From assembly GCA_905478765.1 (NCBI GenBank), contig CAJQJY010000014.1, positions 47,605 through 111,604 on the forward strand: DNA of 64,000 nucleotides, read 5' to 3'. Within the stretch, counting starts at the first letter, position 1. Each line of letters opens with the position of its first letter. Below, in pieces: positions 39,314 through 59,783 of this stretch. The notes under the pieces are model-generated. The model saw only the letters and a program-made list of their open reading frames with translations. It was not told where the DNA came from and did not search any database. Position numbers and translations under genes: made by a program. The stretch comes from an uncultured Flavobacteriales bacterium (GTDB taxonomy: Bacteria > Bacteroidota > Bacteroidia > Flavobacteriales > BACL11).

Positions 39314-40165
39314 ATGAAAGAAGAATTAAGTTTAAGAGAAATAATTAATGAGGTGATTATCTTTTTTATTAATTTTAAAACATTGATAATTGTAATTACC
39401 TTCGTTGGAACTTTAGGTGTTATTGTTTTTCAAAAGATACGACCAGCTTATTACAATACTACTTCTATTGCAACTTCAGGTATCTCTGCTTTTGAAAGAA
39501 TTGAAGATGAGAAGGAGGTTTTGAACCAAAGGACAGCAATAAATCTTATTAATACTCTTGATCTAGATGTTCAGAAAGAAGATTTCATTGTTCTTGGAGA
39601 AAAATTAAATATATCGATGGAAAAAGCAGCTTCCATCAAGAGTATAAACGCAACTCAAATATTTAGAAAAGATCAGGATGGGAAAGACTTTAATACACCT
39701 AAATTTGAAATACTTTTAACTGTAAAAGATAATGGGATTATTAAGAATATTGAAGAAGGATTATTGCATTATTTTAATTCTAATCAATATATACATTCCT
39801 ATTATGATTACTTTAAACTTACAAATGATAATGAAATAATAGCGATTGATAGTGAGATAGAAAGTTTGCAGAAATTTAGATCAGATAAGGGTTCTAATAT
39901 TGATATGAGTTCTTTTAATTTATATTCAAAAAAAGGATTAACTGAGGTGCAAAATCAGATTATTGAACTAAATCAGCTAAAATCAATTAACGCGACAAAT
40001 CAAATGTTACTTAAGCCACTATCATTTGTTCAAGGATTTACAATTTCTCAAACACCAGAAAGAGGTGTTTTACTTTTAGGTTCTTTAGCGTTTGTGATAT
40101 CTTTTATAGTTGCTATAATAGTTGCTGTTTTTGTAAATGTTAAACAAAAATTAAACATTAAATAA
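39314..40165 (+). CDS. Wzz-like polysaccharide chain-length determinant (PCP) protein, no kinase domain
   Basis: 283 aa. N-terminal EELSLREII motif plus TM helix, long periplasmic-type middle region, C-terminal TM (LLLGSLAFVISFIVAIIVAVF). This is the PCP-1 topology. Confidence 0.5.
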   Translation: MKEELSLREIINEVIIFFINFKTLIIVITFVGTLGVIVFQKIRPAYYNTTSIATSGISAFERIEDEKEVLNQRTAINLINTLDLDVQKEDFIVLGEKLNISMEKAASIKSINATQIFRKDQDGKDFNTPKFEILLTVKDNGIIKNIEEGLLHYFNSNQYIHSYYDYFKLTNDNEIIAIDSEIESLQKFRSDKGSNIDMSSFNLYSKKGLTEVQNQIIELNQLKSINATNQMLLKPLSFVQGFTISQTPERGVLLLGSLAFVISFIVAIIVAVFVNVKQKLNIK

Positions 40166-43772: not shown

Positions 43773-43776
43773 AATT

Positions 43777-44598
43777 ATGATGAATAATTGGTTAAAATAT
43801 AATGGCTCAATAATTCCATCATCGCCTCCACATATTATGGTTACGGAGTCTAAAGTAGAAATTCAAAAATTACTTGTAAGTAGTAGATCTTTTTTTGCAA
43901 GGTGGGTTTCAAATTTTGATGCATCTATAGATTCTTCTTTTTGGTATGTAATTAATGATAAGGCTTTAGAAATCGAAGATTATAGTAAAAATACCAGGAG
44001 TAAGATCAGGAGAGGATTGAAGAATTTTGTTGTGAAAAAGATTGAAAAATCTGAGTTAATTAATCATGGTTATCAAGTTTATGTTGCCGCTTTTAAAAGG
44101 TATAAAACAATTAATAAGCCAATGAGTAGTAAAAAGTTCATTAAGCATATCAATAGCTTAGATAAGGGTTGGGAGTTTTGGGGAGTTTATTCAAGAGAAA
44201 CTGATGAATTGATTGCTTATAGTCAAAATAAGATTGTAACTGACCAATGTTATTACTCAACTATTAAGTTTCATGAAAAATACTTGAAAATGTACTCTAG
44301 TTATGCTCTTTATTTTGCAATGAATAGTTATTACTTAAAAGAAAGAAAATTAAAATATGTAAATGAAGGCACAAGAAGTATTTTACATGAAACAAATGTT
44401 CAATCTTTTTTAATTGATAAATTTAAATTTAGAAAAGCTTATTGTAAATTACACGTTCAATATCATCCTTTAGTCACTCCAATTATTTTTGTTTTGTATC
44501 CTTTTAGGAAAATCATTGTTAAAAGTAATTTATTGTTTTTTAGAAAAATTGGAGTAGTTTTATCTCAAGAAAAATTGCGTAGAAATCCTAATGAATAG
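43777..44598 (+). CDS. hypothetical protein, possibly FemAB/BioF2-like GNAT acyltransferase
   Basis: 273 aa, soluble. Segments TRSKIRRGLKN and SFLIDKFKFRKAY resemble FemAB-like GNAT families. Weak recognition by eye only. Confidence 0.3.
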   Translation: MMNNWLKYNGSIIPSSPPHIMVTESKVEIQKLLVSSRSFFARWVSNFDASIDSSFWYVINDKALEIEDYSKNTRSKIRRGLKNFVVKKIEKSELINHGYQVYVAAFKRYKTINKPMSSKKFIKHINSLDKGWEFWGVYSRETDELIAYSQNKIVTDQCYYSTIKFHEKYLKMYSSYALYFAMNSYYLKERKLKYVNEGTRSILHETNVQSFLIDKFKFRKAYCKLHVQYHPLVTPIIFVLYPFRKIIVKSNLLFFRKIGVVLSQEKLRRNPNE

Positions 44599-45340
44599 TT
44601 TAGTTTCCATAATAACTCCATCTTATAATTCCTCAAAATTTATTATGGAATGTATTGCTTCAGTTTTTTCTCAAACGTATACAAATTGGGAAATGATTAT
44701 TGTAGATGATTGTTCTAAAGATAATTCAAAAAAAATAATTAAAGAACTTGCAGTTAAAGATAAAAGAATTAAGCCAATCTTTTTAGAAAAAAATGTTGGT
44801 GCTGCTAAGGCCAGAAATGTTGCAATTAGACAAGCAAAAGGAAAATATGTTGCCTTTTTAGATTCAGATGATTTATGGAATCCTAAAAAATTAGAAAAAC
44901 AACTCTCTTTTATGTGTGAAAATGACATAGCTTTTTCTTATACAAATTATCAGTTTATGTCCGAAAATGGTGCCAATCTATCAAATATCATTTTAGCTCC
45001 TAAAAAGATGACTTACGATTCATATTTGAAAAATACTATTATTGGTTGTTTGACCGTTATTGTTGATAGAGAGAAATCTGGTGAATTTGAAATGCCAAAT
45101 ATCCGTTCTTCTCATGATATGGCTCTTTGGTTGTTAATTATGAAAAGAGGTTTCTATGCTTACGGATTAGATGAGAATCTTGCAAGATATAGAATTGTCT
45201 CAACATCAAATACCGCTAGTAAATGGCATGCAGCAAAGGATGTTTGGAAAGTATATAGGCATGTTGAAAAGTTATCATTTACATATAGTGCTTGGTGTTT
45301 TTTTTGGTATGCTTTTAATGCATTAAAAAAAAGAATATAA
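44591..45340 (+). CDS. family 2 glycosyltransferase
   Basis: VSIITPSYNSSKFI...SQTY..WEMIIVDDCSKDNS and DSDD motif (FLDSDDLW). Confidence 0.85.
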   Translation: MNSLVSIITPSYNSSKFIMECIASVFSQTYTNWEMIIVDDCSKDNSKKIIKELAVKDKRIKPIFLEKNVGAAKARNVAIRQAKGKYVAFLDSDDLWNPKKLEKQLSFMCENDIAFSYTNYQFMSENGANLSNIILAPKKMTYDSYLKNTIIGCLTVIVDREKSGEFEMPNIRSSHDMALWLLIMKRGFYAYGLDENLARYRIVSTSNTASKWHAAKDVWKVYRHVEKLSFTYSAWCFFWYAFNALKKRI

Positions 45341-45924
45341 TGAAAAGAGTCTTTGATTTTTTAGTTTCCCTTATGGGATTATTTTTATTCACCCCATTGC
45401 TTGTATTGTTATCATTGCTAATTAAATTTACTTCTAAAGGAACCATATTTTTTATTCAGGAAAGAGTTGGAGAGAATGGAGTTTTTTTTAAGATGATTAA
45501 GTTTAGAAGTATGCAAATGATTCAGGATTCAGATATTACAATATCAGTGAAGGGTGATATGAGAGTTACTAAAGTTGGTTCATTTCTGAGAAGATATAAA
45601 TTAGATGAATTGCCTGAGTTATGGAATGTTTTAGTTGGGGATATGAGTTTGGTTGGACCAAGGCCGGATGTGCCTGGATATGCTGATTTTCTGAAAGGAG
45701 AAGATAGAAATATCCTAAAATTGAAGCCTGGAATTACTGGTCCTGCAAGTTTAAAATATGCTAATGAGGAAGAAATATTATCAAGACAGGAGAATCCTAA
45801 AGAATATAATGATGAGATAATTTACCCAGATAAAGTCAGAATCAATTTAGATTATTACTATCAATCTAACTTATGGATTGATATTAAAATTATATTTGCG
45901 ACAATATTTAGAAATTCGTATTAG
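45340..45924 (+). CDS. small monotopic phosphoglycosyl transferase (PglC/WcfS-like initiating sugar transferase)
   Basis: 194 aa. KRVFDFLVSLMGL re-entrant helix, KFRSM, DELPELWNVLVGDMSLVGPRP. Confidence 0.85.
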   Translation: MKRVFDFLVSLMGLFLFTPLLVLLSLLIKFTSKGTIFFIQERVGENGVFFKMIKFRSMQMIQDSDITISVKGDMRVTKVGSFLRRYKLDELPELWNVLVGDMSLVGPRPDVPGYADFLKGEDRNILKLKPGITGPASLKYANEEEILSRQENPKEYNDEIIYPDKVRINLDYYYQSNLWIDIKIIFATIFRNSY

Positions 45925-47057
45925 TGAAAGATAATAAAAAAATATGGTTAGCCTCACCACATATGGGAGGAGATGAGTTGAGATTTGTAAAAGAGACATT
46001 TGATACGAATTGGATTGCTCCTATTGGTCCGCATATAAATACTTTTGAAGAACAACTTTCTAAAATCTCAAATGGATATAAGGTAGCGGCATTAAGCAGC
46101 GGAACTGCCTCAATTCATTTAGCTTTGATTTTAGCTGGAGTCAAAGCTAATGATGATGTGATTTGTTCTACTTTTACCTTTTCAGCATCAGCAAATCCAA
46201 TTAAATATTTGGGTGCAAATCCAGTCTTTATTGATAGTGAATCCTTGAGTTGGAATATGTGCCCTGAACTTTTGGAAAAATCAATAGTTGAAGGAATTGA
46301 AAAAAATAAAAAACCAAAAGCAATTATTTTGGTTCATCTATATGGGATGCCTGCAAAAATGGATGTGATAATGGAAATTTCCAATCAATATGATATTCCT
46401 TTGATTGAGGATGCTGCTGAGGCACTTGGCTCAACATACAAAAACCAGCCTTTAGGGACATTTGGTAAGTTTGGTGTTTATTCTTTTAATGGAAATAAGA
46501 TAATAACAACATCAGCAGGTGGAGCTTTACTTTGTAAGGATAAGAGTTTGATTAAAAAAGCAAAATTTTTTGCTACTCAATCCAGGGATAATGCTCCCCA
46601 TTATGAACATTCTGAAATTGGATATAACTACAGAATGAGTAATGTGTGTGCTGCTATTGGATTAGGTCAATTAGAAGTGTTATCTGATAGAGTAAGACGA
46701 AAAAGAGAAATTTATAATTTTTATAAAACTGAACTTTCTGGAATTAAAGAGATTACTTTTTTATATGAAAGTATAGGTAGTTTTTCTAATTATTGGCTAA
46801 CAACAATTTTACTTGATAAAAATAGCACAATAGATAGAGAACAATTGCGTTTGCATCTGGAAAAAGATAATATTGAGAGTCGTCCATTATGGAATCCAAT
46901 GCATTTGCAACCAGTATTTAAAAATTGTAAAGCATATGTAAATGGAGTCTCTGGTGATTTATTTAATAGAGGATTATGCTTGCCTTCTGGAACCAATATT
47001 TCTAATAAGGATTTAAAAAGAGTAGTTAATAAAATAAAAGAATTATATGAAGCTTAG
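45924..47057 (+). CDS. DegT/DnrJ/EryC1/StrS-family sugar aminotransferase (PglE/WcfR-like)
   Basis: PLP-Lys context FNGNKIITTSAGGAL and N-terminal ASPHMGGDELRFVKETF..NWIAPIGP. GTG start overlaps the upstream stop. Confidence 0.85.
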   Translation: MKDNKKIWLASPHMGGDELRFVKETFDTNWIAPIGPHINTFEEQLSKISNGYKVAALSSGTASIHLALILAGVKANDDVICSTFTFSASANPIKYLGANPVFIDSESLSWNMCPELLEKSIVEGIEKNKKPKAIILVHLYGMPAKMDVIMEISNQYDIPLIEDAAEALGSTYKNQPLGTFGKFGVYSFNGNKIITTSAGGALLCKDKSLIKKAKFFATQSRDNAPHYEHSEIGYNYRMSNVCAAIGLGQLEVLSDRVRRKREIYNFYKTELSGIKEITFLYESIGSFSNYWLTTILLDKNSTIDREQLRLHLEKDNIESRPLWNPMHLQPVFKNCKAYVNGVSGDLFNRGLCLPSGTNISNKDLKRVVNKIKELYEA

Positions 47058-48900
47058 ACTTCAAAATCTGCAGCGAATTTACAAGCAAATTATCATGTTG
47101 ATTGTTGATGTTCTGACTTTATTTTTAGCTTTGTGGTTAGCTTTTGTTTTACGATTAGGTGAGGCCTATCCTGTAGAATATCTTCTTCCATCATGGTGGT
47201 TGTTTCTTGTAATACCAATAATAATGATGCCGCTTTTTGTGAAGTTAGGCTTATATCGTGCAGTTTTGCAATATATTGGAATTAATGTTATAACTACAAC
47301 TTTTAAAGCTACAACCATTTCGTGTTTAATTGTAGGGTTTTTTATGATGTTTTTTCGTGAATCAAATTTACCAAGATCAGTGTTGCCAATATTTTGGTTT
47401 ATAATAAATATCTTTATTATTTCAAGTCGTTTCTTGTTTAAGGGTTATTTGTATTCTTGGGATAGTTTTGTAAATTCTAGAAAACAGACTATTATCTATG
47501 GAGCGGGAAATGCAGGAGTTCAGCTCATTGAAAGTTTGAAAAAAAGCTCTGTTTATGCGCCAATTGCCTTTATTGATGATGATAAAACAAAACAGGGTAC
47601 TATTCTTAATTTTTTAGAGGTTTTCCCATACAGTTCAATTGAGAATCTTATTAAAAATAAAGAAGCAAAAGTTTTGCTTTTAGCTGTTCCTTCTGCAAAT
47701 GTAAAACAAAGAACACAAATACTAAAGAAATTATCAAAACACCCTATTGAGGTTAAAATTTTGCCTTCAATGGACAATATAGTAAATGGGGTAGTTTCTA
47801 TTGATAATATAAAACATGTTGAAGTTGGTGATATCTTGGGAAGAACAGTAGTTTCTCCAAAGAAAGATTTGCTAAAAAGAAATATTTCAGGAAAAAATAT
47901 TTTGATTACTGGCGCTGGAGGAAGTATTGGTTCTGAGCTGTCAAGACAGATCATGAAACTTTCTCCAAATAAGGTTGTGCTGTTAGATAACTCAGAATTT
48001 AATTTATACAATATACATTTAGAGCTTGTTAGTAAAGATTTTTCAATTGATTTGATTCCATCACTTTGTACGGTTACAAATTACCATCAGTTGAAGAAGA
48101 TTACTGAAATGAATAAGATTGATACAATTTATCATGCGGCCGCCTATAAGCATGTTCCTATGGTTGAAATGAATGTTGTTTCTGGAACCTATAATAATGT
48201 TGTTGGGACTTTTAATGTCGCAAAAGTTGCTGATGAATTAAATTTGGAAAATTTAGTTCTTGTTTCTACAGATAAAGCAGTCCGACCTACAAATGTGATG
48301 GGAGCCTCAAAGAGAATGTCAGAATTAGTATTACAAGCATTTTCTGAGAAAAGCAACACATGTTTTTCAATGGTTCGTTTTGGTAATGTATTAAATTCTG
48401 CTGGTTCAGTAGTGCCTCTGTTCAGAAATCAAATAAAAAAAGGAGGACCTGTTACTGTAACTCATAGAAATATTACAAGATATTTTATGTCAATCCCAGA
48501 AGCAGTTGAGCTGGTTATACAATCAGGAGCTATGGCAAAAGGAGGTGATGTTTTTGTTTTAGATATGGGGGAGCCAATTAAAATTATTGATTTAGCTTAT
48601 AAAATGATTCATCTAAGTGGGCTTACACCTATTGATAATGAAAACCCTGATGGAGATATAAGAGTAGAATTTACTGGACTTAGACCTGGGGAAAAATTAT
48701 ATGAAGAGTTATTGATTGGAAATGATGTAGTTCAATCAGAACATCCCAGGATTATGCAAGCTAAAGAAAGTAAATTATCAATGCAAGACATACTATATTG
48801 TATCGGTCTTATTAAATCCTCTAGAGAAGGTCAGGATGAAAAGGTTGTTAAAGAACTCTTGTTGAAATATGTTGATGGTTACACATCAGAAGTAGTATAA
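47047..48900 (+). CDS. membrane-anchored UDP-HexNAc 4,6-dehydratase (CapD/PglF/WbpM family)
   Basis: Four N-terminal TM helices followed by an SDR domain (ILITGAGGSIGSEL, YKHVP, STDKAVRPTNVMGASK). Confidence 0.85.
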   Translation: MKLRLQNLQRIYKQIIMLIVDVLTLFLALWLAFVLRLGEAYPVEYLLPSWWLFLVIPIIMMPLFVKLGLYRAVLQYIGINVITTTFKATTISCLIVGFFMMFFRESNLPRSVLPIFWFIINIFIISSRFLFKGYLYSWDSFVNSRKQTIIYGAGNAGVQLIESLKKSSVYAPIAFIDDDKTKQGTILNFLEVFPYSSIENLIKNKEAKVLLLAVPSANVKQRTQILKKLSKHPIEVKILPSMDNIVNGVVSIDNIKHVEVGDILGRTVVSPKKDLLKRNISGKNILITGAGGSIGSELSRQIMKLSPNKVVLLDNSEFNLYNIHLELVSKDFSIDLIPSLCTVTNYHQLKKITEMNKIDTIYHAAAYKHVPMVEMNVVSGTYNNVVGTFNVAKVADELNLENLVLVSTDKAVRPTNVMGASKRMSELVLQAFSEKSNTCFSMVRFGNVLNSAGSVVPLFRNQIKKGGPVTVTHRNITRYFMSIPEAVELVIQSGAMAKGGDVFVLDMGEPIKIIDLAYKMIHLSGLTPIDNENPDGDIRVEFTGLRPGEKLYEELLIGNDVVQSEHPRIMQAKESKLSMQDILYCIGLIKSSREGQDEKVVKELLLKYVDGYTSEVV

Positions 48901-48918
48901 TCCTGTTATTTTTGTAAA

Positions 48919-50283
48919 ATGAATATTATTGTACTAGGAGCAGGTGCATTTGGAACAGCTATTGCTAATGAACTTTCAGTAAATACTGAAAATAATGCAG
49001 TATTGTTTTCCAGAAACAAAGAGAAAGTTGAAGAGATTAATTTACACAATACTAATCAATCTTGTTTCCCTAACAAACATCTTACAAAGCATCTACGGGC
49101 TTCTTTTGATAAAAAGGAAATTCAAAGAGCAGATGTTATTTTTATTGCATTGCCATCACCTATTATTATAGAGTATCTAAAAAAATTAAGACCGTACTTT
49201 TCAAAAAGTGTACTGCTTGTTAATTTATCGAAAGGATTATTAGAAAATGGAGTAACAATAGTAGATAGAGTAAAGATAGAGTTAAATACTGAGAATGTTG
49301 TTGCATTAAAAGGGCCTTCTTTTGCGGTTGAGATTATGGAACATGCAGATACATTGTTAACTCTTGGTTATTCAACAAGAGAACAATATGAAATTATCAA
49401 TAAAATAATTATTGACACTGCATTGCATATTGATTGTACAACTGATATTAGGGGTGTTGAGGTTCTTAGTGTTCTAAAAAATATTTATGCTTTAGTTTTG
49501 GGTATTGTAGATGCAAAATACAATTCTCCTAATACTCGTTTTATGATATTAACTAAAGCATTTTCAGAAGTTAGGGTATTGTTAAGGGCATTGGGTGGTG
49601 CTCACGACACTTTGTTCTTGGCTTGTGGTTTTGGTGATTTATGCTTAACATCACTTAACGATTTGAGTAGAAACAGAACTTTAGGATTGTTAATTGGAAA
49701 AGGCTTTTTTAATGCTGATTATAAATCAAATTCTGTGATTTTGGAGGGATTGAAAGCAGTTGATTTAGTTCATAGTTTTCCATTGGATCATGTTATGGAT
49801 ACTTTACCTTTATTAAATAAGTTACATTCGTTTTTTGGGAGTAAGGAAAATGTACTTTCAATACAGTTTGATAAGCTAGTAGACCAAAAGTTTAAAACTG
49901 TTTTGACTTATGGTACTTTTGATTTATTACATTATGGACATCTTGAAATATTAAGAAGAGCAAGTTCACTAGGAGATAAATTAATAGTTGGAATTTCAAC
50001 TGATGAATTTAATGAGTTGAAAGGCAAAACGTGTATTTTGCCATACGAGAAAAGAAAAGAGCTATTAGAATCACTTGATTATGTTGACAAAGTAATTCCA
50101 GAAGATAATTGGGAACAAAAAGTTTCAGATGTTAAAGAAAATGATGTAGATATTTTTGTAATGGGAAATGACTGGGAAGGAAAATTTGATGAATTAAAAG
50201 CTTATTGTAAAGTGATATATTTTCCAAGAACAAAGGGCATCTCAACAACTAAATTAAAGTCAATTTTAAAAGAAGAAGAGTAA
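48919..50283 (+). CDS. fusion protein: NAD(P)-dependent glycerol-3-phosphate dehydrogenase (GpsA-like) plus glycerol-3-phosphate cytidylyltransferase (TagD-like)
   Basis: N-terminal Rossmann IIVLGAGAFGTAIANEL and a GpsA-like body (~320 aa). The C-terminal ~129 aa carry TYGTFDLLHYGHLEILRRA, ISTDEFN and RTKGISTT, closely resembling B. subtilis TagD as I recall it. Continuous ORF. Confidence 0.8.
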   Translation: MNIIVLGAGAFGTAIANELSVNTENNAVLFSRNKEKVEEINLHNTNQSCFPNKHLTKHLRASFDKKEIQRADVIFIALPSPIIIEYLKKLRPYFSKSVLLVNLSKGLLENGVTIVDRVKIELNTENVVALKGPSFAVEIMEHADTLLTLGYSTREQYEIINKIIIDTALHIDCTTDIRGVEVLSVLKNIYALVLGIVDAKYNSPNTRFMILTKAFSEVRVLLRALGGAHDTLFLACGFGDLCLTSLNDLSRNRTLGLLIGKGFFNADYKSNSVILEGLKAVDLVHSFPLDHVMDTLPLLNKLHSFFGSKENVLSIQFDKLVDQKFKTVLTYGTFDLLHYGHLEILRRASSLGDKLIVGISTDEFNELKGKTCILPYEKRKELLESLDYVDKVIPEDNWEQKVSDVKENDVDIFVMGNDWEGKFDELKAYCKVIYFPRTKGISTTKLKSILKEEE

Positions 50284-50290
50284 GCTATTA

Positions 50291-51553
50291 ATGAAAATTG
50301 ATGCTGAAATAATTAATAAAGAGGATTTTAAAACAATTCTTAATAATTTTTTTTCACTTACATTGCTTAAGGTATTGACCTATATTTTACCTTTAATTAC
50401 GTTTCCATATTTAATTAGAGTATTAGGGGTAGAAAAATTTGGGCTTATTATGTTTGCTCAGGCAACAATGTATTATTTTGAGATTGTCGTTGATTTTGGG
50501 TTTAATCTTTCAGCTACTAGAGAGGTTGCTTTAAATGCTAAAAAAGTAAATAAATTAAATGAGATTATTAGTGCTGTATTTAGTATTAAGTGTTTTTTAT
50601 TAATCATTTCCTTTTTAATTTTATTTATAGTGCTTAGTATTTTTGATCGCTTCACAGATGATTATTTAATTTATTATTATTCCTTTTTAAAAGTAATTGC
50701 CATTACTTTTTTTCCAGTTTGGTTTTTTCAAGGAATAGAGAAAATGAAATATGTAACTTACATTAACATCGTTTCTAAATCCATATATACAGTTCTGATA
50801 TTTGTGTTTATTCAAACTGAATCAGATTATCTGTTGGTGCCTTTAATTAATGGTTTTGGTTTTTTTATTGGAAGCCTATTAGCTTTGTATTATGTATTTA
50901 AGCATTTTAAGCATGTTTTTGTGTTTAATTCTTTCGCAATAATTAAACAGCATTTTATAGATAGTTCTATGTTCTTTTTATCTAGAGTTTCTGTATCGCT
51001 ATATACTTCTAGTAACACTTTTGTACTGGGTCTAGTAGCAAGTAATCTTACGGTAGGTTATTATGCAATAGCAGAAAAATTATATATGGTTATTCGCCAA
51101 CTATATCAGCCAATTGTACAGGTGATTTATCCATATATTTCTAAAAGTAAGAATTTGGTTTTTTTCAAGAAGCTATATCCAGTAGTTGTATTACTAAATT
51201 TTATTGGAGTTTATATTCTTTGGGTTTTTGCTCCTGAGCTGATTTATTTGGTATCCAAGGAATATTTTTTAGAATCTATTAAAGTATTTAGGATTTTACT
51301 TGTTGTATCATGTATTGTTGTTCCCTCTATTTTAATTGGTTATCCATTTTTGGCTGCTTTAGGATTTAAAAATGAAGCAAATTATAGTACAATTATTGGT
51401 TCTCTTTTTCATGTAGTTATTTTAGGTATTTTATATTTTAGTAATCTGATAAATATGTATAATATAGTTTACTTGCTGTTAGCAACTGAGTCGATTGTTC
51501 TGTTATATAGATATTATGCAGTATATAAAAATAAACTTTTTCAAATCGCCTGA
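50291..51553 (+). CDS. Wzx-type oligosaccharide flippase (polysaccharide biosynthesis protein family)
   Basis: 420-aa polytopic protein with N-terminal LKVLTYILPLITFPYLIRVLGVEKFG, typical of Wzx/RfbX flippases. Confidence 0.7.
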   Translation: MKIDAEIINKEDFKTILNNFFSLTLLKVLTYILPLITFPYLIRVLGVEKFGLIMFAQATMYYFEIVVDFGFNLSATREVALNAKKVNKLNEIISAVFSIKCFLLIISFLILFIVLSIFDRFTDDYLIYYYSFLKVIAITFFPVWFFQGIEKMKYVTYINIVSKSIYTVLIFVFIQTESDYLLVPLINGFGFFIGSLLALYYVFKHFKHVFVFNSFAIIKQHFIDSSMFFLSRVSVSLYTSSNTFVLGLVASNLTVGYYAIAEKLYMVIRQLYQPIVQVIYPYISKSKNLVFFKKLYPVVVLLNFIGVYILWVFAPELIYLVSKEYFLESIKVFRILLVVSCIVVPSILIGYPFLAALGFKNEANYSTIIGSLFHVVILGILYFSNLINMYNIVYLLLATESIVLLYRYYAVYKNKLFQIA

Positions 51554-51554
51554 C

Positions 51555-52775
51555 ATGATAAAGAAATATATTAAGTACTTGCCTAAAATATTGAATCCTT
51601 TAATGTATATTATTTATTGTTTAGTATATTTTATTCCTAGAAATAAGAAAAATTGGGTTTTTGGTTCTGGAGTAGGATTAAATTTTAGCGATAATGCAAA
51701 ATATTTATTTTTGTATTGTACTTCTTTACCGGAAATTAATTCTTTTTGGATAACAAGAAATAAGACTTTGGTAGAAAACTTAAGGAGTGAAGGGTTAAAA
51801 GCATATTATAAATATAGCTTAAAGGGTTTATGGTTAAGTATTTCATCTAAGGTATATGTATATGATTCTCGGACAGGAAGTATTAATCATTGGGTCTCAG
51901 CAGGAGCTCTTAGAGTAAATCTTTGGCATGGGTCACCATTAAAAACAATTGACAGAGACATTACGGTTAAGCATAATGCATTTTATATTGGTAATCATAC
52001 TTGGGGTCCAAAACGATATCTTGTAAGGATGATGATGCCAGAATGGTTTGTGGTGGCTGATTTAATGATAGCTACTTCTGATAAAGTAAAAGGTTATTTT
52101 AAGTCAGCTTTTGGCTCGGAAAAAATTGAGGTCACAGGCTATCCCAGGAATGATATTGTTATCAATCCTAATTTGTATGCAAGACATTTGGGATTTGAAC
52201 AACAAATTATTGAATCTATTACTACTGAAAAAACAATTTTGTATGCACCTACTTTTCGTGATACAAATCGTTTTGCTAGAGAAACTCCAATTGAATGGGA
52301 AAAGTTAAATAATTTATTAATAAAACAAAATGCTACTTTTCTAATTAAATTACATAGGCATGATTACTCTATGGTAATGAAAGAAGAGTATAGTAATATT
52401 AGAGTGTTAGATAATGAAAGTGATATGTACCCATTATTTACTAAAGTTGATCTTTTAATCACAGATTACTCATCTATTTTCTTTGATTTCTTATTAACAG
52501 ATAAACCAGTATTGTTTTACCCTTATGATAAAGATGAATATCTGAATATGGACCGCTCTATGTATGATGATTATGACACAGTAACACCAGGTTATAAGGC
52601 TTATGATTATTCTGATTTTCATAAAAAGTTAGAATTGTTTTTTGAACAGCCAAATGCATTAAAGGAAGGTGATTTAGATTATCAGAAAATTAAGAAAATG
52701 TATAATAAGTATAGTGATTTCAATGGTGCAAAGCGTACTTATGAGTTTATTAATTCAAACCTATATAGTTTTTGA
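51555..52775 (+). CDS. CDP-glycerol glycerophosphotransferase (TagB/TagF family)
   Basis: Start trimmed to the ATG at 51555, directly after the upstream stop. YAPTFRD motif, KLHRHD and ITDYSSIFFDF segments are typical of the Glyphos_transf family. Confidence 0.7.
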   Translation: MIKKYIKYLPKILNPLMYIIYCLVYFIPRNKKNWVFGSGVGLNFSDNAKYLFLYCTSLPEINSFWITRNKTLVENLRSEGLKAYYKYSLKGLWLSISSKVYVYDSRTGSINHWVSAGALRVNLWHGSPLKTIDRDITVKHNAFYIGNHTWGPKRYLVRMMMPEWFVVADLMIATSDKVKGYFKSAFGSEKIEVTGYPRNDIVINPNLYARHLGFEQQIIESITTEKTILYAPTFRDTNRFARETPIEWEKLNNLLIKQNATFLIKLHRHDYSMVMKEEYSNIRVLDNESDMYPLFTKVDLLITDYSSIFFDFLLTDKPVLFYPYDKDEYLNMDRSMYDDYDTVTPGYKAYDYSDFHKKLELFFEQPNALKEGDLDYQKIKKMYNKYSDFNGAKRTYEFINSNLYSF

Positions 52776-54073
52776 GGCAAGGATTAAAAAATAGAATTGT
52801 TTCAGAATTATATTTCTTAATACTATTATTCCCCATTTGGTGGATTCTAGGCATGGAACAATTTATTTGGGTCATCTCAGTTGGCTTGATTTTTATACAA
52901 TTTTTAATATATAGCAAATTTCAATTTAAAATGAATATTCTTGGATTATTGTTGTTATTTTTCCTTGTGATCTATGGGATTTCATTTATTAGCATTACTG
53001 AGAAAATGAGATATATAACCTATTTTAGAAACTTGAGCACCTATCTAACAGCTTTTATGCTTGTTATTGTAGTGTGGAATATTGTTGATGAATGGTGGCA
53101 GGTTGAGAAATTATTAGGGGCTATTATTTTTGTAATGCTGATAGCATCTATTGTTGGAGTTTTAGCTTTCATATTCGATTCATTTAGAGTTAGATTTAAA
53201 TCATTGGCAGGTTTTTTTATGCCCTCATCAATATCAAGTACAGGTTATGGAAGTGTAATTGCTATTAGAAATGTAGGTTTTTATAATTGGTTTATTGGTT
53301 TGGGTGAGTATTTTAGGGTCAGTTCCTTTTTTTTGTATTCAACTATGTTTTCTTCTACATTAGCAATTGTATTACCAATTGCAATGTTTCTTAAAAAAAT
53401 AAACATTGGTATAAAAAAAACTTACTTTACAATAGTAGTTATAATTATGGGTTTAGCGCTTTTAGCTACAACAGGGCGTGTTGCAATATTAGCAATATTT
53501 ATTGCGTATTTTATTTTTAAATTTCTCTCTATTAAGAATTTTAGTATTCGTTTTTCTATTATTGCTTTTTCTTTTTTCTTTATCTTACTATCTTTACTTT
53601 GGCTTGAACAAACTGGATTACTTTATCAGATTATTGATTTTGCTTTATATTCAAGGGGTAAAGGTAGTGCAAACGCAAGGTCTAAAATATATATTCAAAC
53701 CTTTGAAGGTTTTTTAGAACGACCAATTTTTGGATGGGGAACTGAAAGAGATGTTAAGGGCTTAGCATATCCATTAGGATCCCATAGTTATTATCTTGGG
53801 ACGTTATATAAACAAGGTGTGGCTGGTTTAATATTGTTTTTAAGCATTTTTGCAAATGTTTGGACTAATATTAAAGTTAAGAATAATTTAAATTACCGGG
53901 TTTCTTTATTTTACAGATATGGTCAATTTATGTTATTAGTATTTCTTATTAATAGCTTTACAGATGTTTTAGATTTAGATGCAACTACTATGATGTTTTT
54001 ATGGGTTATTATTGCACTCTTAACTGTTTCTAAAAGATTATCTACTAATCCCCAAAATCAATTCAATGATTAA
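52772..54073 (+). CDS. O-antigen polymerase/ligase-like (Wzy_C-type) membrane protein
   Basis: 433-aa polytopic protein with a TGRVAILAIFIAYF segment and a large loop (YSRGKGSANARSKIY...WGTERD). The TTG start is uncertain. Confidence 0.55.
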   Translation: MRQGLKNRIVSELYFLILLFPIWWILGMEQFIWVISVGLIFIQFLIYSKFQFKMNILGLLLLFFLVIYGISFISITEKMRYITYFRNLSTYLTAFMLVIVVWNIVDEWWQVEKLLGAIIFVMLIASIVGVLAFIFDSFRVRFKSLAGFFMPSSISSTGYGSVIAIRNVGFYNWFIGLGEYFRVSSFFLYSTMFSSTLAIVLPIAMFLKKINIGIKKTYFTIVVIIMGLALLATTGRVAILAIFIAYFIFKFLSIKNFSIRFSIIAFSFFFILLSLLWLEQTGLLYQIIDFALYSRGKGSANARSKIYIQTFEGFLERPIFGWGTERDVKGLAYPLGSHSYYLGTLYKQGVAGLILFLSIFANVWTNIKVKNNLNYRVSLFYRYGQFMLLVFLINSFTDVLDLDATTMMFLWVIIALLTVSKRLSTNPQNQFND

Positions 54074-54737
54074 TCTTATTGTTAGAGATAAAAGTTCAAA
54101 AAGACCAACTACTTTCTTAAATCCATTTTCATATATTGTTGCAAGGAGAAATATTAAACACCTAAGCCAGTTTAATATTGAAATTGATGGAGGGATGTTA
54201 GTGGTAGTTTTAAGATTTTTTGGCATTAGAGTTAAAAGGAAAAGTTTTGATATGACTTCTTTAGCACCTCTTGTTTTTGAAAATGCAATTAAGAATAATC
54301 AATCAGTTTTTTTTATAGGCACTAAACCAAAAGTTATTGACGTGGCTATTCAGAATATTCAGAATCAATTTCCTGAGTTAAATATTTGTGGTTATAGAGA
54401 TGGATATATGTCAATTGAAGAAAGAGAATCGGTGCTTACAAAAGTTAAGAGTCTTAATCCGTATTTTGTCATTTGTGGTATGGGAGCCCCTTTGCAAGAG
54501 CAATTCCTGATTGATCTGAAAAATATTGGATGGGTTGGAAAAGGGTATACATGTGGCGGGTTCTTGCATCAAACTGCTGATGGAATCGAGTATTATCCTA
54601 AGTGGATAACTGAATTTGGTTTAAGGGCTTTTTATAGAATGTATGATGAGCCTCAGTTATTAAAAAGATATTTTATCAACTATCCTATTGCAATGATTGT
54701 GATTGTATATGACTTGATTAAGTATAAAATGAGTTAG
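54066..54737 (+). CDS. WecG/TagA/CpsF-family (GT26) glycosyltransferase
   Basis: FFIGTKPKVIDVAIQNIQNQFPELNICGYRDGY ... ICGMGAPLQEQF pattern of GT26. Confidence 0.8.
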   Translation: MINLIVRDKSSKRPTTFLNPFSYIVARRNIKHLSQFNIEIDGGMLVVVLRFFGIRVKRKSFDMTSLAPLVFENAIKNNQSVFFIGTKPKVIDVAIQNIQNQFPELNICGYRDGYMSIEERESVLTKVKSLNPYFVICGMGAPLQEQFLIDLKNIGWVGKGYTCGGFLHQTADGIEYYPKWITEFGLRAFYRMYDEPQLLKRYFINYPIAMIVIVYDLIKYKMS

Positions 54738-54771
54738 ATTAATTCCCTACCTTTACATCAAATTTTAGAAA

Positions 54772-55890
54772 ATGAAAAGCAAAGTTGCATTAATCACAGG
54801 TATTACAGGGCAAGATGGTTCTTATTTGGCAGAATTCTTGTTAAAAAAAGGGTATAAAGTTCATGGAATAAAAAGAAGAGTATCCTCATTTAATACAGAT
54901 AGAATAGAGCATTTATATGAAGGCCCGTATATTGAAAATAGAAATTTGATTTTGCATTATGGTGATATGACAGATTCTATGAATCTGACTAAAATTATAA
55001 AGGAAGTTCAGCCAGATGAAATTTACAATTTAGCAGCAATGAGCCATGTCCATGTTTCTTTTGAAATTCCTGAATATGTCGCTAATACTGATGGAATTGG
55101 AACACTAAGACTTTTGGAAGCAATAAGGTTATTAGGCTTATCTGATAAAACAAAAGTTTATCAAGCCTCAACTTCTGAGTTATTTGGTAAAGCACAAGAA
55201 GTTCCTCAGTCTGAATCAACACCTTTTTACCCTAGAAGTCCTTATGCAGTTGCAAAGATGTACGCTTATTGGATTACAGTTAATTATCGCGAGGCCTATG
55301 GTATTTTTGCTTGTAATGGGATTTTGTTCAACCATGAGTCGCCCGTTAGAGGTGAAACTTTTGTTACTCGTAAAATTACTCGTGCTGCATCAAAAATTGT
55401 ATTAGGATTGCAGGATAAATTATACTTAGGAAATTTAGATGCCAAAAGAGATTGGGGACATGCTAAGGATTATGTGCGTATGATGTGGATGATATTACAA
55501 ACAGAAGTTGCTGAAGATTGGGTAATTGCAACAGGTAAAACGACTACAGTTCGTGATTTTGTAAAAATGTCTTTTGCTCATGCTGGAGTAGAATTAACAT
55601 TTAAAGGTGAAGGTAAGGATGAGAAAGGTATTGTTATGTCTTGTTCTAATCCTAATTACAAAGTTGAGATAGGAAAAGAGGTAGTTGCTGTTGATCCAAC
55701 CTATTTCAGACCAACTGAGGTTGATTTATTGATTGGAGATCCAACAAAAGCAAATACTCAATTAGGTTGGATTCCAGAATATAACTTGGAAAAATTGATA
55801 AGTGAAATGATGGAATCAGATTTGAAATTGATGACGAAAGACCAGTACTTGAAGGACGGAGGCTACACCATTAAGAATTATTTTGAGTAA
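54772..55890 (+). CDS. gmd: GDP-mannose 4,6-dehydratase
   Basis: [19 protein letters not shown], catalytic STSELFG and YAVAK. 372 aa. Confidence 0.95.
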
Positions 55891-56965
55891 AATGAAAAAA
55901 GATAGTAAAATCTATATTGCTGGGCATAGTGGCTTGGTTGGCTCTGCAATTGTTAAAAATTTAAAAGCAAAAGGGTATAGTAATATTGTTTATCGCACAC
56001 ATTCAGAATTAGATTTAACGAACCAAGAGGATGTTAAAAAATTCTTTCAGATAGAAAAGCCTGAATTTGTAATTTTAGCAGCTGCAAAAGTGGGGGGTAT
56101 TATAGCTAATAATAGATATAGAGCTGATTTTATTTATGAAAATAGTATGATTCAGAATAATGTGATTCATCAATCATATTTGCAAGGAGTTAAAAAATTA
56201 TTGTTTTTAGGAAGCACTTGTATTTATCCAAAAAATACAGAACAACCTATTGTTGAAGAAAGTTTAATGACCTCTGAATTAGAATATACTAATGAGCCTT
56301 ATGCAATTGCTAAGATAGCGGGAATAAAAATGTGTGAGAGTTATAATTTGCAATATGGCACAAACTTTATTTCAGTAATGCCGACTAATTTATATGGTCC
56401 GAATGATAATTTTGATTTAGAAAAATCCCATGTCTTACCTGCTTTAATTCGTAAAATTCATTTAGGGAAATGTTTGCAACAGAACAAATGGAATTCTATT
56501 AAATTGGATTTAGATAAAAACCCAATTGGAGGGATTAAAGGGGATTCAAATAAAGAACAGATTACTAATATCTTGTCAAAATATGGGGTTAAAGAAGATT
56601 CAATTGAGATTTGGGGAAGCGGAAACCCTAAAAGAGAGTTTTTATGGTCAGAGGATATGGCAGATGCTTGCGTATATTTGTTAGAAAACATGGATTTCAG
56701 TGATACATTTGACTCAGAAAATACTGAAATTAGAAATACGCATATTAATATTGGAACAGGTATAGATATATCAATAAAAGACCTTGCTGAAGAAATTAAA
56801 TCTGTTATTGGATATAAAGGTAATTTTGTTTTTAATACATCAAAACCAGATGGAAATATGATGAAACTCACGGATGTAAGCAAGTTGAACAATTTAGGTT
56901 GGAAGCATAAAATTCCACTTGAAAAGGGTGTTGAAAAGATGTATGCTTGGTATCTTACAGAGTAG
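55883..56965 (+). CDS. fcl: GDP-L-fucose synthase
   Basis: [27 protein letters not shown]. Directly follows gmd. Carries a ~40-aa insertion relative to E. coli Fcl. Confidence 0.9.
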
Positions 56966-56998
56966 AACTATTCTTTTCTTTTTCTTACTTTTGTTCTA

Positions 56999-58384
56999 AT
57001 GAAAGGTTATTCTAAATATTTTTGGTTCATACATTTTATTGGTGATATTTTATGTATTAATATTGCTTTTATCTTAATGTATTATCTAAAGTTTGATTCT
57101 TTTGATTTTTCAGATAAGTATCGTTTTTTAATAATTATTTTCAATGCGAACTGGATACTAGTTGCATTGATGCTAAAGCTTTATGAGTTGAATAGAATCA
57201 TGAGGTTAGATAAAGTTTTGTTCAATCTTTTTAAAGCATTTGGATTTAACATTTTAGTAATTACAGCTGTTCTTTTTTCTTTAAAACAATCTCAATTTTC
57301 AAGAGAACATTTGTACGCAACATACTTAATATTATTTGGGTTAATTATGTTTTGGAGATATTTGTCAATTAAGTTAATTAGACTTTACAGAAAATCAGGA
57401 TATAACTATAGGAGGGTTGTTATAGTTGGAGGAGGAGAAGTAGCTCAACAATTAAATGACTATTTTAATTCTGATGATGTTTTAGGAGTAAGGTTGCTAG
57501 GTGTATTCACCGATTCTGACTTATCTTTTGGTATAAAGGATAGTGTAAAAACTGGTACATTAGATAGTTTAGAGCAGTTTGCATTAAAAAATGATATTGA
57601 TGAGATTTTCTATACTATGCCTTTAACATATACTAAAAAAATTAAAGGATTAGTTGATTTCTGTGATAGATACATGATAAGGTTTAAAGTAGTTCCTGAT
57701 TTTAGAGGGTTTATATTTAAACGTGTAAACATTGATTTTTTTAATGATGTACCAGTTATTACTTTAAGAGAAGAGCCTCTTACGGATTTTATTAATAGAT
57801 TTACAAAAAGAGTATTTGATTTGATATTCTCATTACTTACTGTTGTTTTTGTGTTGAGTTGGTTGTATCCTATTATAGCTGTATTAATTAAATTGTCATC
57901 AAAGGGACCTGTTCTGTTTAAGCAATCTCGTTCTGGAGTAAATAATGAAGAATTTTTGTGTTATAAATTTCGCTCAATGACAATGAGTGAAGAAGCTGAT
58001 ACTAAACAAGCTACAAAAGGTGACGTGAGAATAACAAAGATTGGAGCATTTTTAAGAAAATCATCTTTGGATGAGTTTCCACAGTTTTTTAATGTACTTA
58101 TGGGGGATATGTCCATTGTTGGGCCTAGGCCACATATGCTAAAACATACAGAAGAATACTCTGAGTTGATACAAAAATATATGGTAAGGCAATTGGTAAA
58201 GCCCGGTATAACTGGGGCTGCTCAAGTAAAAGGGTATAGAGGAGAAACTAAAGAATTGGAAGATATGGAGGGGCGTGTGCGTTTAGATGTTTGGTATATC
58301 GAGAACTGGTCATTGTCATTGGATATAAATATAATATTTTATACGGTTTGGAATGTTTTTAAAGGTGATGAAAAAGCATATTAA
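56999..58384 (+). CDS. large polyprenyl-phosphate hexose-1-phosphate transferase (WbaP/WcaJ family)
   Basis: N-terminal TM bundle, central Rossmann-like domain (VVIVGGGEVAQQL) and a C-terminal sugar-transferase domain (KFRSM, DEFPQFFNVLMGDMSIVGPRP). Confidence 0.85.
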   Translation: MKGYSKYFWFIHFIGDILCINIAFILMYYLKFDSFDFSDKYRFLIIIFNANWILVALMLKLYELNRIMRLDKVLFNLFKAFGFNILVITAVLFSLKQSQFSREHLYATYLILFGLIMFWRYLSIKLIRLYRKSGYNYRRVVIVGGGEVAQQLNDYFNSDDVLGVRLLGVFTDSDLSFGIKDSVKTGTLDSLEQFALKNDIDEIFYTMPLTYTKKIKGLVDFCDRYMIRFKVVPDFRGFIFKRVNIDFFNDVPVITLREEPLTDFINRFTKRVFDLIFSLLTVVFVLSWLYPIIAVLIKLSSKGPVLFKQSRSGVNNEEFLCYKFRSMTMSEEADTKQATKGDVRITKIGAFLRKSSLDEFPQFFNVLMGDMSIVGPRPHMLKHTEEYSELIQKYMVRQLVKPGITGAAQVKGYRGETKELEDMEGRVRLDVWYIENWSLSLDINIIFYTVWNVFKGDEKAY

Positions 58385-59783
58385 ATTACTTATTTTAGTT
58401 TTCTTTCCTTTTTGTTTGATTGGTCAGATTTCTAGCTTTAAACCTTATCCATATACACAATTCTCAAACTACTTTTTAGATACGATTACTTCTTATGATT
58501 CTGATATAAATCAGCATATTGAGTTAGGCTCAAGAATCAACTCTAAGATTAATTATCGTGATAATAAGATGTATAGTAGTTTACTTTTAGGTAAAGTTTT
58601 TTCAGCTAATCTTAAAAATAAGATTACACTTAATTCTAATCTCGATCATCTAATTGGAGATTTCCATCCATTAAATCAGCATCTTGCTGATTCTCTAGAT
58701 TTATATTTCCCTACTTATGGAGATAAAAGGTTTAGATGGCAATTTAATTTAAAGTATAAGGTAAATAAATTTATAACTGCAGATTTTGGAAAAGGCAGGC
58801 ATTTTATTGGAAATGGTTATCGTTCACTTTTATTGTCTGCTAATCATACCCCTTACCCTTACTTAAGATTGACAACAGAATTCGGTAGAGTTAAGTACTA
58901 TAATTTATATACAACTTTCTTAAATCCTAATCAAAGTGATTTTGGAAGAAAGAAACATTCAACTATTCATTTTTTAGATTTTGCTATAACTGAGAATATT
59001 CACTTTGGAGTTTTTGAAAGTATTTTATGGCAATCAAAATCAGAAGAAGTTAATAAAGGCTTTGAGTTTGCTTATCTTAATCCTATCATTTTTTATCGTC
59101 CGGTGGAGTTTTCAAAACAATCTAGTAAAGGTAATGCTTTGATGGGCGCTAATTTTAATGCTACGTTCAATACAACTCTTATATATGGGCAGGCAGTGCT
59201 TGATGATATTAATATTTCACGCCAAAAAGATAGTGATGTAGAAGATTATGAAGAAGGGTTTTTTCAAAATAAGTTTGGGTTTCAGATTGGAGTACAAACT
59301 AAATATAAAGGAGTTGATTTATTAGCTGAGTACAATCAAGTCCAACCTTATACTTATGGGCATAGAACAATATTGCAAAATTATTCTCATATGAACGAAG
59401 CTTTAGCTCATCCTTTGGGAGCCAATTTTAAGGAAGTAGTTTTGGTGGCCAATTATAAAAAAGATAAATGGATGTATAGCATTAAAGTTACAACTTCAAA
59501 AGTAGGTTTGGATTCGTTAGACACTCATTATGGACAGAATATCTTTGAATCAGATTATGAAGCAAGTACAGGGGGTCAATATTCTTATGGGAACTATAAC
59601 GGGCAAGGGTTTTTAACTCAACTAAACACTATGTATGCTGAAATCTCTTATGATTATAAAGGGTTTGATATTTTTTGTTCATTATTCTATAAAAGTAAGA
59701 AGTCTGAACTATTAGATCAGACTTCTTACTTTTATTCATTAGGATTGAGGACTTTTCCATTCTCAACATTCACTGATTATTAA
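58368..59783 (+). CDS. predicted outer-membrane beta-barrel protein, possibly Wzi-like capsule-assembly family
   Basis: Start trimmed to the ATG at 58368 (MKKHIKLLILVFFPFCLIGQ signal peptide). Alternating beta-strand-like sequence and an aromatic C-terminus (FTDY). Last gene of the glycan locus. The family call is tentative. Confidence 0.4.
   Translation: MKKHIKLLILVFFPFCLIGQISSFKPYPYTQFSNYFLDTITSYDSDINQHIELGSRINSKINYRDNKMYSSLLLGKVFSANLKNKITLNSNLDHLIGDFHPLNQHLADSLDLYFPTYGDKRFRWQFNLKYKVNKFITADFGKGRHFIGNGYRSLLLSANHTPYPYLRLTTEFGRVKYYNLYTTFLNPNQSDFGRKKHSTIHFLDFAITENIHFGVFESILWQSKSEEVNKGFEFAYLNPIIFYRPVEFSKQSSKGNALMGANFNATFNTTLIYGQAVLDDINISRQKDSDVEDYEEGFFQNKFGFQIGVQTKYKGVDLLAEYNQVQPYTYGHRTILQNYSHMNEALAHPLGANFKEVVLVANYKKDKWMYSIKVTTSKVGLDSLDTHYGQNIFESDYEASTGGQYSYGNYNGQGFLTQLNTMYAEISYDYKGFDIFCSLFYKSKKSELLDQTSYFYSLGLRTFPFSTFTDY

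Follow-up and report, generated by a model that had tools for sequence, protein, structure and literature searches.

Do five adjacent genes that resemble a Gram-positive teichoic acid toolkit, found in a diderm bacterium, encode an undescribed hybrid route to a surface glycan, or do they belong to a class of glycan loci that is already known? This question is raised by positions 48919-54737 of a 64,000-nucleotide stretch of DNA (the window) from an uncultured Flavobacteriales bacterium, where a GpsA–TagD fusion, a Wzx-type flippase, a TagF/TagB-family CDP-glycerol glycerophosphotransferase (the TagF-like protein), a polytopic Wzy_C-family protein and a GT26-family glycosyltransferase are encoded one after another. 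A preliminary description of the sequence had chosen the first answer. The analysis presented here favors the second one: we assign a probability of about 0.75 to the block being the variable half of a Wzx/Wzy-dependent locus of the O-antigen or capsule type, in which the lipid-linked repeat unit carries glycerol phosphate. The preliminary description is right on the enzymology and wrong on the novelty, and the class of the locus is that of the known Wzx/Wzy-dependent glycerol-phosphate glycans.

Protein families were assigned with Pfam and NCBIfam profiles, and motifs were located by alignment to PDB entries. The five open reading frames (ORFs) of the block were recovered as previously described, co-directional on the + strand and nearly contiguous, with gaps of 7 and 1 nt between the first three and overlaps of 4 and 8 nt between the last three. 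The block occupies the middle of a co-directional glycan array of about 20 kb (39314-59783), tightly spaced on one strand, which begins directly after gldN and thus lies downstream of gldKLMN. Exact copies of the block proteins are present on 26-46 public contigs each (NCBI, JGI, ENA and Logan data), the named sources being metagenome-assembled genomes (MAGs) of uncultured marine 'Flavobacteriales bacterium'. Existing pipeline labels for these products include glycerol-3-phosphate cytidylyltransferase, CDP-glycerol glycerophosphotransferase (TagB/SpsB family) and WecB/TagA/CpsF family glycosyltransferase.

The first gene encodes a protein with two catalytic domains. The N-terminal part matched NAD_Gly3P_dh_N (103.5 bits, gathering threshold 23.1), NAD_Gly3P_dh_C (93 bits against 25) and GPD_NAD_C_bact (58.5 bits against 27.6). 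The C-terminal part matched CTP_transf_like (aa 329-447) and passed the equivalog TIGR01518 (g3p_cytidyltrns; aa 328-448, 176 bits against a cutoff of 165.4), which places it inside the glycerol-3-phosphate cytidylyltransferase family, as the fusion call had implied. Because the NCBIfam models for housekeeping GpsA all scored below cutoff (the best, NF000942, with 191 bits against 257), the dehydrogenase part is best regarded as a diverged GpsA-type domain and not as the housekeeping orthologue. Alignment with Coxiella GpsA (3k96) revealed intact GxGxxG (GAGAFG), KG (SKGL), KN (LKNI), GDL and SRNR motifs. The TagD domain aligned with the solved enzymes of B. subtilis and S. aureus (PDB 1coz/2b7l) with 168 bits and, in comparison with 1coz, keeps HxGH (HYGH), RTxGISTT (RTKGISTT) and the equivalents of B. 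subtilis Lys44 and Lys46 (ELKGK). The catalytic motifs of both domains were invariant across an alignment of eight homologues. On these grounds, the earlier proposal that the fusion makes CDP-glycerol starting from dihydroxyacetone phosphate (DHAP) is a well-founded prediction.

More than 100 full-length homologues of the fusion were found, with 58-99% identity and cultured species such as Aestuariibaculum marinum and Mariniflexile rhizosphaerae among them, so an assembly artefact is ruled out, and the fusion is widespread among Flavobacteriaceae. A pattern search of contigs with the fusion alignment also retrieved, among the matches listed, full-length fusions with the same domain order in Ruminococcus flavefaciens, other Clostridia and Erysipelotrichaceae (32-35% identity); the patterns fell inside the TagD domain and stand-alone TagD proteins of Firmicutes dominated the matches, so that these results are not a clean census of fusions. 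In two contigs, one from Winogradskyella (L007, 9995-12083) and one from R. flavefaciens (L015, 8844-11515), the fusion adjoins a LicD-family phosphotransferase and not a TagF-like enzyme. The Winogradskyella module is not part of any glycan locus; RNase Y lies on one side of it and a histidine kinase plus an integrase on the other. In a Cryomorphaceae MAG (L014, 1078-2814), an unfused TagD of 135 aa, 81% identical to the fused TagD domain of the window, is followed by a TagF-like gene whose product is 78% identical to its counterpart in the window. This pair, too, is found outside any glycan locus; its neighbors are a UvrD-like helicase fragment and isocitrate dehydrogenase. Even among close homologues, then, the fused state is not constant.

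A search of the open-access literature returned no characterised GpsA–TagD bifunctional enzyme, which is weak negative evidence, and within the literature searched the fusion is the only feature of the block without a described precedent. By analogy, the closest functional match would be the reductase/CDP-ribitol pyrophosphorylase Acs1/Bcs1 of H. influenzae, in which a reductase and a cytidylyltransferase likewise share one polypeptide encoded in a surface-glycan locus (Follens 1999, as cited in PMC7685785). The polyol is ribitol in Acs1/Bcs1, whereas it would be glycerol in the fusion of the window. The enzyme families are also different, TarJ- and TarI-type in the former and GpsA- and TagD-type in the latter.

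The assignment of the third gene product to the glycerophosphotransferase family was sustained by a Glyphos_transf match of 187.8 bits (gathering threshold 22.1) covering positions 3-365 of the 367 in the profile, and by the presence of the YAPTFRD motif noted previously. Both His444 and His584 of S. epidermidis TagF (3l7i) are kept, within the aligned pairs WHGSPLK/WHGTPLK and KLHRH/LLRMH, and the protein also matches Cps3D (8qoy) in sequence. The teichoic-acid equivalogs were not passed: the best NCBIfam match was TarF (104 bits against a cutoff of 550), with TarL at 68 against 1000 and TarB at 50 against 500. No transmembrane segment was detected in a crude hydropathy scan. The longest ORF starts at TTG 51495; on 41 public contigs the product is called from ATG 51555. 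Since the fusion is adjacent in every relative, the context favors CDP-glycerol over CDP-ribitol as the donor. Primases and polymerases of this family are not separated by any sequence marker, and it is the context that suggests the addition of a single glycerol phosphate to a lipid-linked unit.

The remaining three genes supply the functions of a repeat-unit pathway. The Wzx call was borne out by its Polysacc_synt score. The fourth product, earlier described as Wzy- or O-antigen-ligase-like, scored above cutoff with Wzy_C and shows some 11 hydrophobic segments, with a hydrophilic loop at about aa 280-348. Its start is either TTG 52772 or ATG 52853, with homologues aligning from residue 22 on; the exact product from TTG 52772 was absent from the public contig collection, and a PDB sequence search with the protein gave no match. 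This protein is most likely the repeat-unit polymerase Wzy, as judged from the co-variation of its gene with the transferase genes among relatives and from its location at the wzy position of the E. coli O28ac/O42 cluster described below. The fifth product belongs to GT26, as had been stated, and passed the superfamily model TIGR00696 (74.5 bits against a cutoff of 69). On the contrary, its former designation as a TagA-type hallmark of teichoic acid synthesis was not upheld: the score with the TarA equivalog was 51 bits against a cutoff of 350, that with the WecG equivalog was also far below cutoff, the match to the TagA structure 7mpk was weak (35 bits), and the gene is part of a strain-variable cassette. 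From these data the protein does not appear to be a TagA orthologue, and we predict that it adds the second sugar of the repeat unit. The pairing of a WcaJ-type initiating enzyme, encoded further downstream, with a GT26 enzyme resembles that of GumD and GumM in xanthan synthesis, where GT26 is unrelated to teichoic acid.

The novelty of the route was judged by comparison with known loci. A distant DNA search with a gammaproteobacterial tagD led to E. coli O-antigen clusters. The galF–gnd interval of NCTC9699 encodes a cytidylyltransferase, an O28ac/O42 flippase, a CDP-glycerol glycerophosphotransferase family protein, an O28ac/O42 polymerase, two GT2 enzymes, an acyltransferase and glf. This is a Wzx/Wzy cluster of a diderm, and its order of TagD, wzx, glycerophosphotransferase, wzy and glycosyltransferase genes is that of the window. 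Identity to the window proteins reaches 47% for the TagD domain, 35% for Wzx (annotated as O28ac/O42 family O-antigen flippase; 402 aa, E 1e-69) and 25.5% for the transferase (E 4e-25). The E. coli cluster differs in that TagD stands alone with no fused GpsA, the glycosyltransferases are GT2 and not GT26, the similarity of Wzy to that of the window is undetectable, and initiation depends on WecA encoded elsewhere, whereas a WcaJ-type phosphoglycosyl transferase is encoded in the locus of the window. A second E. coli cluster has the same parts in a different order. The O28ac polymer of E. coli is understood to have glycerol phosphate within its chain. Given the shared gene order, the idea of a transplanted Gram-positive toolkit wired into an undescribed hybrid route is not supported.

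Glycerol phosphate has in addition long been known in O-antigens. Glycerol-phosphate O-polysaccharides together with their genetics are the subject of papers on E. coli O28ab, O37, O100, O29 ('teichoic-acid like'), O130 and O33 (cited in PMC7685785), and older examples are those of Citrobacter O16, Hafnia alvei 1205 and Proteus O54 (cited in PMC3210612); the kind of locus is therefore a known one. Related logic operates in monoderms. In the EPA polysaccharide of E. faecalis, teichoic-type polymers have been modelled as passing through Wzx/Wzy with TagA and TagB (PMC7188991), and in the Wzy-type capsule 18C of S. pneumoniae glycerol phosphate forms a branch (PMC10609480). In both systems, as proposed for the window, polyol phosphate is placed onto units linked to undecaprenyl diphosphate (Und-PP), which Wzx flips and Wzy polymerises; the differences are that LytR-CpsA-Psr (LCP) enzymes attach the product to peptidoglycan or rhamnan and that EPA mainly employs LicD-family ribitol-phosphate transferases. 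TagF-like capsule polymerases are also known in Gram-negative bacteria (PMC5974469, PMC8262930). The group 2 capsules concerned (A. pleuropneumoniae, N. meningitidis H/Z, Bibersteinia and C. jejuni HS:1) share with the window a TagF-fold domain in a diderm and lead to teichoic-acid-like polymers, but they are made by large multidomain processive polymerases and depend on ABC transporters, unlike the small single-domain enzyme encoded in a Wzx/Wzy locus here.

With regard to the lineage itself, the preliminary description stands in part. The open-access literature searched gave no O-antigen or capsule of Flavobacteriia in which glycerol phosphate had been characterised chemically and genes had been assigned, and it yielded nothing specific on CDP-glycerol in Bacteroides capsules (weak negative evidence). 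On the other hand, the protein O-glycan of P. gingivalis carries (acetyl)glycerol phosphate on HexNAc (PMC8729774), so that glycerol phosphate on a glycan assembled on undecaprenyl phosphate does occur within Bacteroidota. That glycan is a non-repeating, protein-linked heptasaccharide, its locus is of the metG–wzx LFG type, and the genes responsible for the glycerol phosphate have not been named.

Comparison with relatives revealed the second line of evidence, a conserved frame around an exchangeable centre. In the nearest relative (L001) the flanking genes are 90-97% identical to those of the window and the fusion 94%, and identity then falls to 78% for Wzx and 55% for the TagF-like protein. 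Per-protein comparison detected no homologue of the window Wzy or GT26 in L001, their places being taken by a second Glyphos_transf protein, a different polytopic protein, a GT4 and a different GT26. An apparent conservation of the TagF-like gene in this relative, read from a single blastn high-scoring pair (89%, 38923-52753), was corrected by the per-protein gradient of 94, 78 and 55%. In the more distant relatives L085 and L086 the TagF-like/Wzy/GT26 set occupies the equivalent place beside gldN. Flank identities are mostly 39-77% in L085 and 40-77% in L086, and the corresponding values in the two relatives are 77 and 70% for the fusion, 80 and 69% for the TagF-like protein, 67 and 59% for Wzy, and 62 and 55% for GT26. 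No homologue of the window Wzx was detected in either of them. The gldN gene was seen directly upstream of the array in L085 and in another relative (L002). Such an exchangeable centre between conserved flanks marks a serotype locus for an O-antigen or a capsule. In base composition, GC content is 0.26-0.29 over 41-45 kb and 49-54 kb (0.27-0.29 in the block) against about 0.32 in most of the remaining window, a dip that we read as typical of exchangeable glycan loci.

The pair formed by the fusion and the TagF-like gene recurs in related Bacteroidota, and Wzx, Wzy and GT26 are exchanged in one relative or another. In Mariniflexile, Aestuariibaculum and a 1.4-Mb contig, a Glyphos_transf gene follows the fusion immediately, within conventional loci with rml, gmd, fcl, Wzx, Wzy_C, GT2 and GT4 genes. 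TagD was also found beside a TagF-like gene in contigs of Cryomorphaceae, Chitinophagaceae (Parafilimonas), Cyclobacteriaceae and Balneolaceae; the Parafilimonas contig carries Wza-like, Wzz-like, TagD, Wzx, TagF-like (36% identical), GT2 and GT4 genes. Where the order tagD, wzx, tagF-like is shared by Flavobacteriales, Chitinophagaceae and E. coli (L089, 9407-10636; L017, 2869-4119), the Wzx proteins are 35-42% identical, the upper value being that of the Parafilimonas protein compared with the window Wzx. We regard such identity as high across phyla, and it hints at a horizontally mobile three-gene glycerol-phosphate cassette; the unrelated Wzx proteins of L085 and L086 count against this hint. 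The profile hidden Markov models built from the window Wzx and Wzy seeds were too narrow (9 and 0 matches, respectively), and counts of Wzx near TagD are lower bounds. In L086 (a 457-kb contig) the TagF-like gene and fcl are each split into two ORFs (12738-13945 and 17065-18126), which could be due to frameshift sequencing errors or to pseudogenisation.

The rest of the array and its surroundings are listed in Table 1.

Table 1. Features of the glycan array and of its surroundings in the 64,000-nucleotide window (functions as predicted)
Feature	Position	Strand	Basis or remark
lnt	1681-3315		
LptE-like gene	26513-27010		
gldK, gldL, gldM, gldN	33414-39030		
Candidate chain-length regulator, first array gene	39314..40165	+	Wzz-like topology only
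Polytopic protein, 424 aa	41492-42766	+	About 11 hydrophobic segments; no Pfam/NCBIfam match
273-aa protein	43777-44598	+	No Pfam/NCBIfam match
PglC-like small phosphoglycosyl transferase	45340		Bac_transf
Bifunctional GpsA–TagD fusion, 454 aa	48919..50283	+	Pfam, NCBIfam, PDB alignments
GpsA-type NAD(P)H glycerol-3-phosphate dehydrogenase domain	aa 1-309, nt 48919-49845	+	
Glycerol-3-phosphate cytidylyltransferase (TagD) domain	aa 326-454, nt 49894-50283	+	
Wzx-type (MOP family) repeat-unit flippase	50291..51553	+	Polysacc_synt 181 bits
TagF/TagB-family CDP-glycerol glycerophosphotransferase, 406 aa, soluble	51555..52775	+	Glyphos_transf
Wzy_C-family polytopic protein, candidate Wzy	52772..54073	+	Wzy_C 54 bits (cutoff 31.7)
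GT26 (WecG/TagA/CpsF family) glycosyltransferase	54066..54737	+	Glyco_tran_WecG 115 bits
gmd and fcl (GDP-fucose synthesis)	54772..56965	+	GDP_Man_Dehyd 499 bits, Epimerase 206 bits
WcaJ-type undecaprenyl-phosphate glucose-1-phosphate transferase	56999..58384	+	Bac_transf and CoA_binding_3
476-aa protein	58353-59783	+	One N-terminal hydrophobic segment; no family match
SprB-repeat cargo protein with T9SS sorting domain	61424-63820		

The array contains two complete sets of repeat-unit machinery next to each other, 39314-48900 and 48919-58384. The upstream half encodes, in order, a Wzz-like protein with two transmembrane segments, ugd, the 424-aa polytopic protein, an EpsG-type polymerase candidate, the 273-aa protein, a GT2, the PglC-like transferase, a DegT aminotransferase and a PglF/CapD-type dehydratase, the fusion starting 18 nt past this last gene. 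The first set thus has a PglC-like phosphoglycosyl transferase, a GT2, the 424-aa polytopic protein and the EpsG-type protein, and the second a WcaJ-type phosphoglycosyl transferase, GT26, Wzx and the Wzy_C protein. The Wzz-like protein had no Pfam or NCBIfam match, and its hydrophobic segments at aa 14-32 and 252-270 enclose about 220 hydrophilic residues, a topology like that of polysaccharide co-polymerases; the gene is kept at the start of the array in L001, L085 and L086. In the same three relatives, respectively, the 424-aa protein is kept in place with 90, 49 and 46% identity, and the 273-aa protein of the upstream sub-cluster is conserved with 97, 43 and 48%. By eye, the N-terminus of the 424-aa protein resembles MurJ/MviN-type flippases, which makes it a candidate second flippase. 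In L085 (2878-5655) and L086 (3581-5668) the upstream sub-cluster has a Wzy_C gene in the place of the EpsG-type gene as well as a Sulfotransfer_1 gene, which points to sulfation of the first polymer in these relatives.

Downstream of the block, gmd and fcl sit between GT26 and the WcaJ-type gene. Both are missing from L085, which keeps the TagF-like/Wzy/GT26 set, so GDP-fucose is probably not required by the five-gene block. The WcaJ-type protein passed the WcaJ equivalog TIGR03023 (485.7 bits against a cutoff of 410.75), and its gene lies directly after GT26 in L085; it is the probable initiator of the unit that bears glycerol phosphate. The gene for the 476-aa protein begins before the WcaJ-type gene ends; the protein has conserved counterparts in L085 (56%) and L086 (50%) and may act in the glycan pathway at the outer membrane or in export. 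With regard to the host, the preliminary description was correct in depicting a diderm that makes lipopolysaccharide (LPS) and bears a type IX secretion system (T9SS): besides lnt, the LptE-like gene and gldKLMN, the window holds gldB, PorP/SprF and an ABC ATPase at 25-750. The latter is the sole ABC ATPase found in the window. Profile searches (ABC_tran/ABC2) found no ABC transporter in the ORFs of 39314-59783, in agreement with the earlier view that the block is coupled to Wzx/Wzy and not to a TagGH-type exporter.

In the pathway that we propose, the GpsA domain would reduce DHAP to sn-glycerol-3-phosphate, from which the fused TagD would form CDP-glycerol with CTP. The WcaJ-type enzyme, judging by its equivalog-level score, would transfer glucose-1-phosphate onto undecaprenyl phosphate, and GT26 would add a second sugar. 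At the cytoplasmic face, the TagF-like enzyme would then use CDP-glycerol to add one glycerol phosphate to this lipid-linked disaccharide. Wzx would flip the unit and the Wzy_C protein would polymerise it, possibly under the regulation of the Wzz-like protein encoded at 39314, and the polymer would be ligated to lipid A-core or exported by the products of genes outside the window. The position of glycerol phosphate, in a side branch or in the main chain as in teichoic acids, cannot be read from the sequence.

Several observations weigh against this proposal. L085 and L086 keep the rest of the cassette but not Wzx, and the link between flippase and substrate is therefore loose. The Wzy_C family comprises polymerases as well as O-antigen ligases, which sequence does not separate and which are expected to have a common fold. 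The choice of the WcaJ-type enzyme over the PglC-like one as the initiator rests on adjacency, and the scanned ORFs of the window included no identifiable WaaL, Wza or Wzc. Finally, the source is a MAG of an uncultured Flavobacteriales bacterium, and we infer enzyme activities from sequence.

Part of this evidence can be arranged differently. If the whole 20-kb array made one complex polymer, the PglC-like enzyme would initiate it on a bacillosamine-type sugar supplied by the DegT and PglF-like proteins, and the five-gene block would act as a decoration or processing module. The unbroken, tightly spaced run of genes from 39314 to 59783, with only 18 nt at the junction of the two halves, would fit this arrangement, and so would the presence of just two glycosyltransferases (GT2 and GT26) for four nucleotide-activated precursors. 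We nevertheless consider it unlikely: each half has its own phosphoglycosyl transferase, glycosyltransferase, flippase-like and polymerase-like protein, as expected for two units, and the halves vary independently among relatives.

A true polymer of the wall teichoic acid type is also improbable, although the parallels are several. Gram-positive wall teichoic acid synthesis shares with the window a TagD-type supply of CDP-glycerol, TagF/TagB-family enzymes with the same catalytic histidines, including those of the polymerase TagF, and a GT26 acting on an Und-PP-linked sugar. The inventory of phosphoglycosyl transferase, GT26, Glyphos_transf and TagD parallels TagO, TagA, TagB/F and TagD, and in L001 the two Glyphos_transf proteins and the GT4 resemble TagB, TagF and TagE. 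A processive TagF-like enzyme would in this case build poly(glycerol phosphate) on an Und-PP-glucose-sugar acceptor, Wzx would export it, and the Wzy_C protein, whose Pfam family includes O-antigen ligases, would serve as a WaaL-type ligase to lipid A-core or another acceptor. However, Wzx flippases act on short units, an O-unit in the case of the nearest named homologue (E. coli). The Wzy_C gene behaves like that of a polymerase in co-varying with the transferases, a Wzz-like gene is present, and at 406 aa the TagF-like protein is of the TarF/TagB size class, consistent with its best NCBIfam match, and not of that of the TagF of about 730 aa. In addition, the locus has no TagO-type initiator, TagGH ABC exporter or LCP ligase and uses Wzx/Wzy in their stead, and its proteins are far below the cutoffs of the TarA, TarB, TarF and TarL equivalogs.

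It is very doubtful, too, that glycerol phosphate decorates a glycan that is not polymerised, such as the outer glycan of Bacteroidota protein O-glycosylation or a lipooligosaccharide, with the Wzy_C protein as the ligase. The P. gingivalis O-glycan mentioned above, with its glycerol phosphate genes unassigned, speaks for this view; the ligase of the outer glycan is undiscovered (PMC12871550), and deoxyhexose occurs in O-glycans of P. gingivalis and other Bacteroidota (PMC8729774), which would suit the gmd and fcl genes of the locus. These two genes are dispensable for the block, as their absence from L085 indicates. The array moreover has two polymerase-type genes and a Wzz-like gene, and close relatives differ in a serotype-like manner. 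An LFG-type locus for protein O-glycosylation was rejected on architecture, since such loci open with metG and then wzx and close with two conserved glycosyltransferase genes (PMC12871550), whereas the array follows gldN and has no metG. As for a dedicated anionic surface glycan tied to the T9SS, for instance a cargo anchor like the A-LPS of P. gingivalis, the thought comes from the adjacency of the two-part array to gldKLMN, and we regard it as very improbable. The layout with one initiating transferase per half is reminiscent of P. gingivalis, in which a linking saccharide that depends on WbaP is made separately and then joined to the O-polysaccharide (PMC13086638).

The reading of the block as part of a Wzx/Wzy-dependent locus for a glycerol-phosphate glycan reveals no new kind of pathway. 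The fusion would lead from DHAP to CDP-glycerol in one compact and widespread protein, whose partners are TagF-like or LicD-family transferases, and it could serve as a reagent in the chemoenzymatic synthesis of glycerol-phosphate glycans. For the organism, the prediction is that an abundant uncultured lineage of marine Flavobacteriales displays an anionic surface polysaccharide with glycerol phosphate. This polysaccharide would vary between close relatives in the manner of a serotype, which would bear on the adsorption of phages, on grazing and on attachment to particles in the sea.

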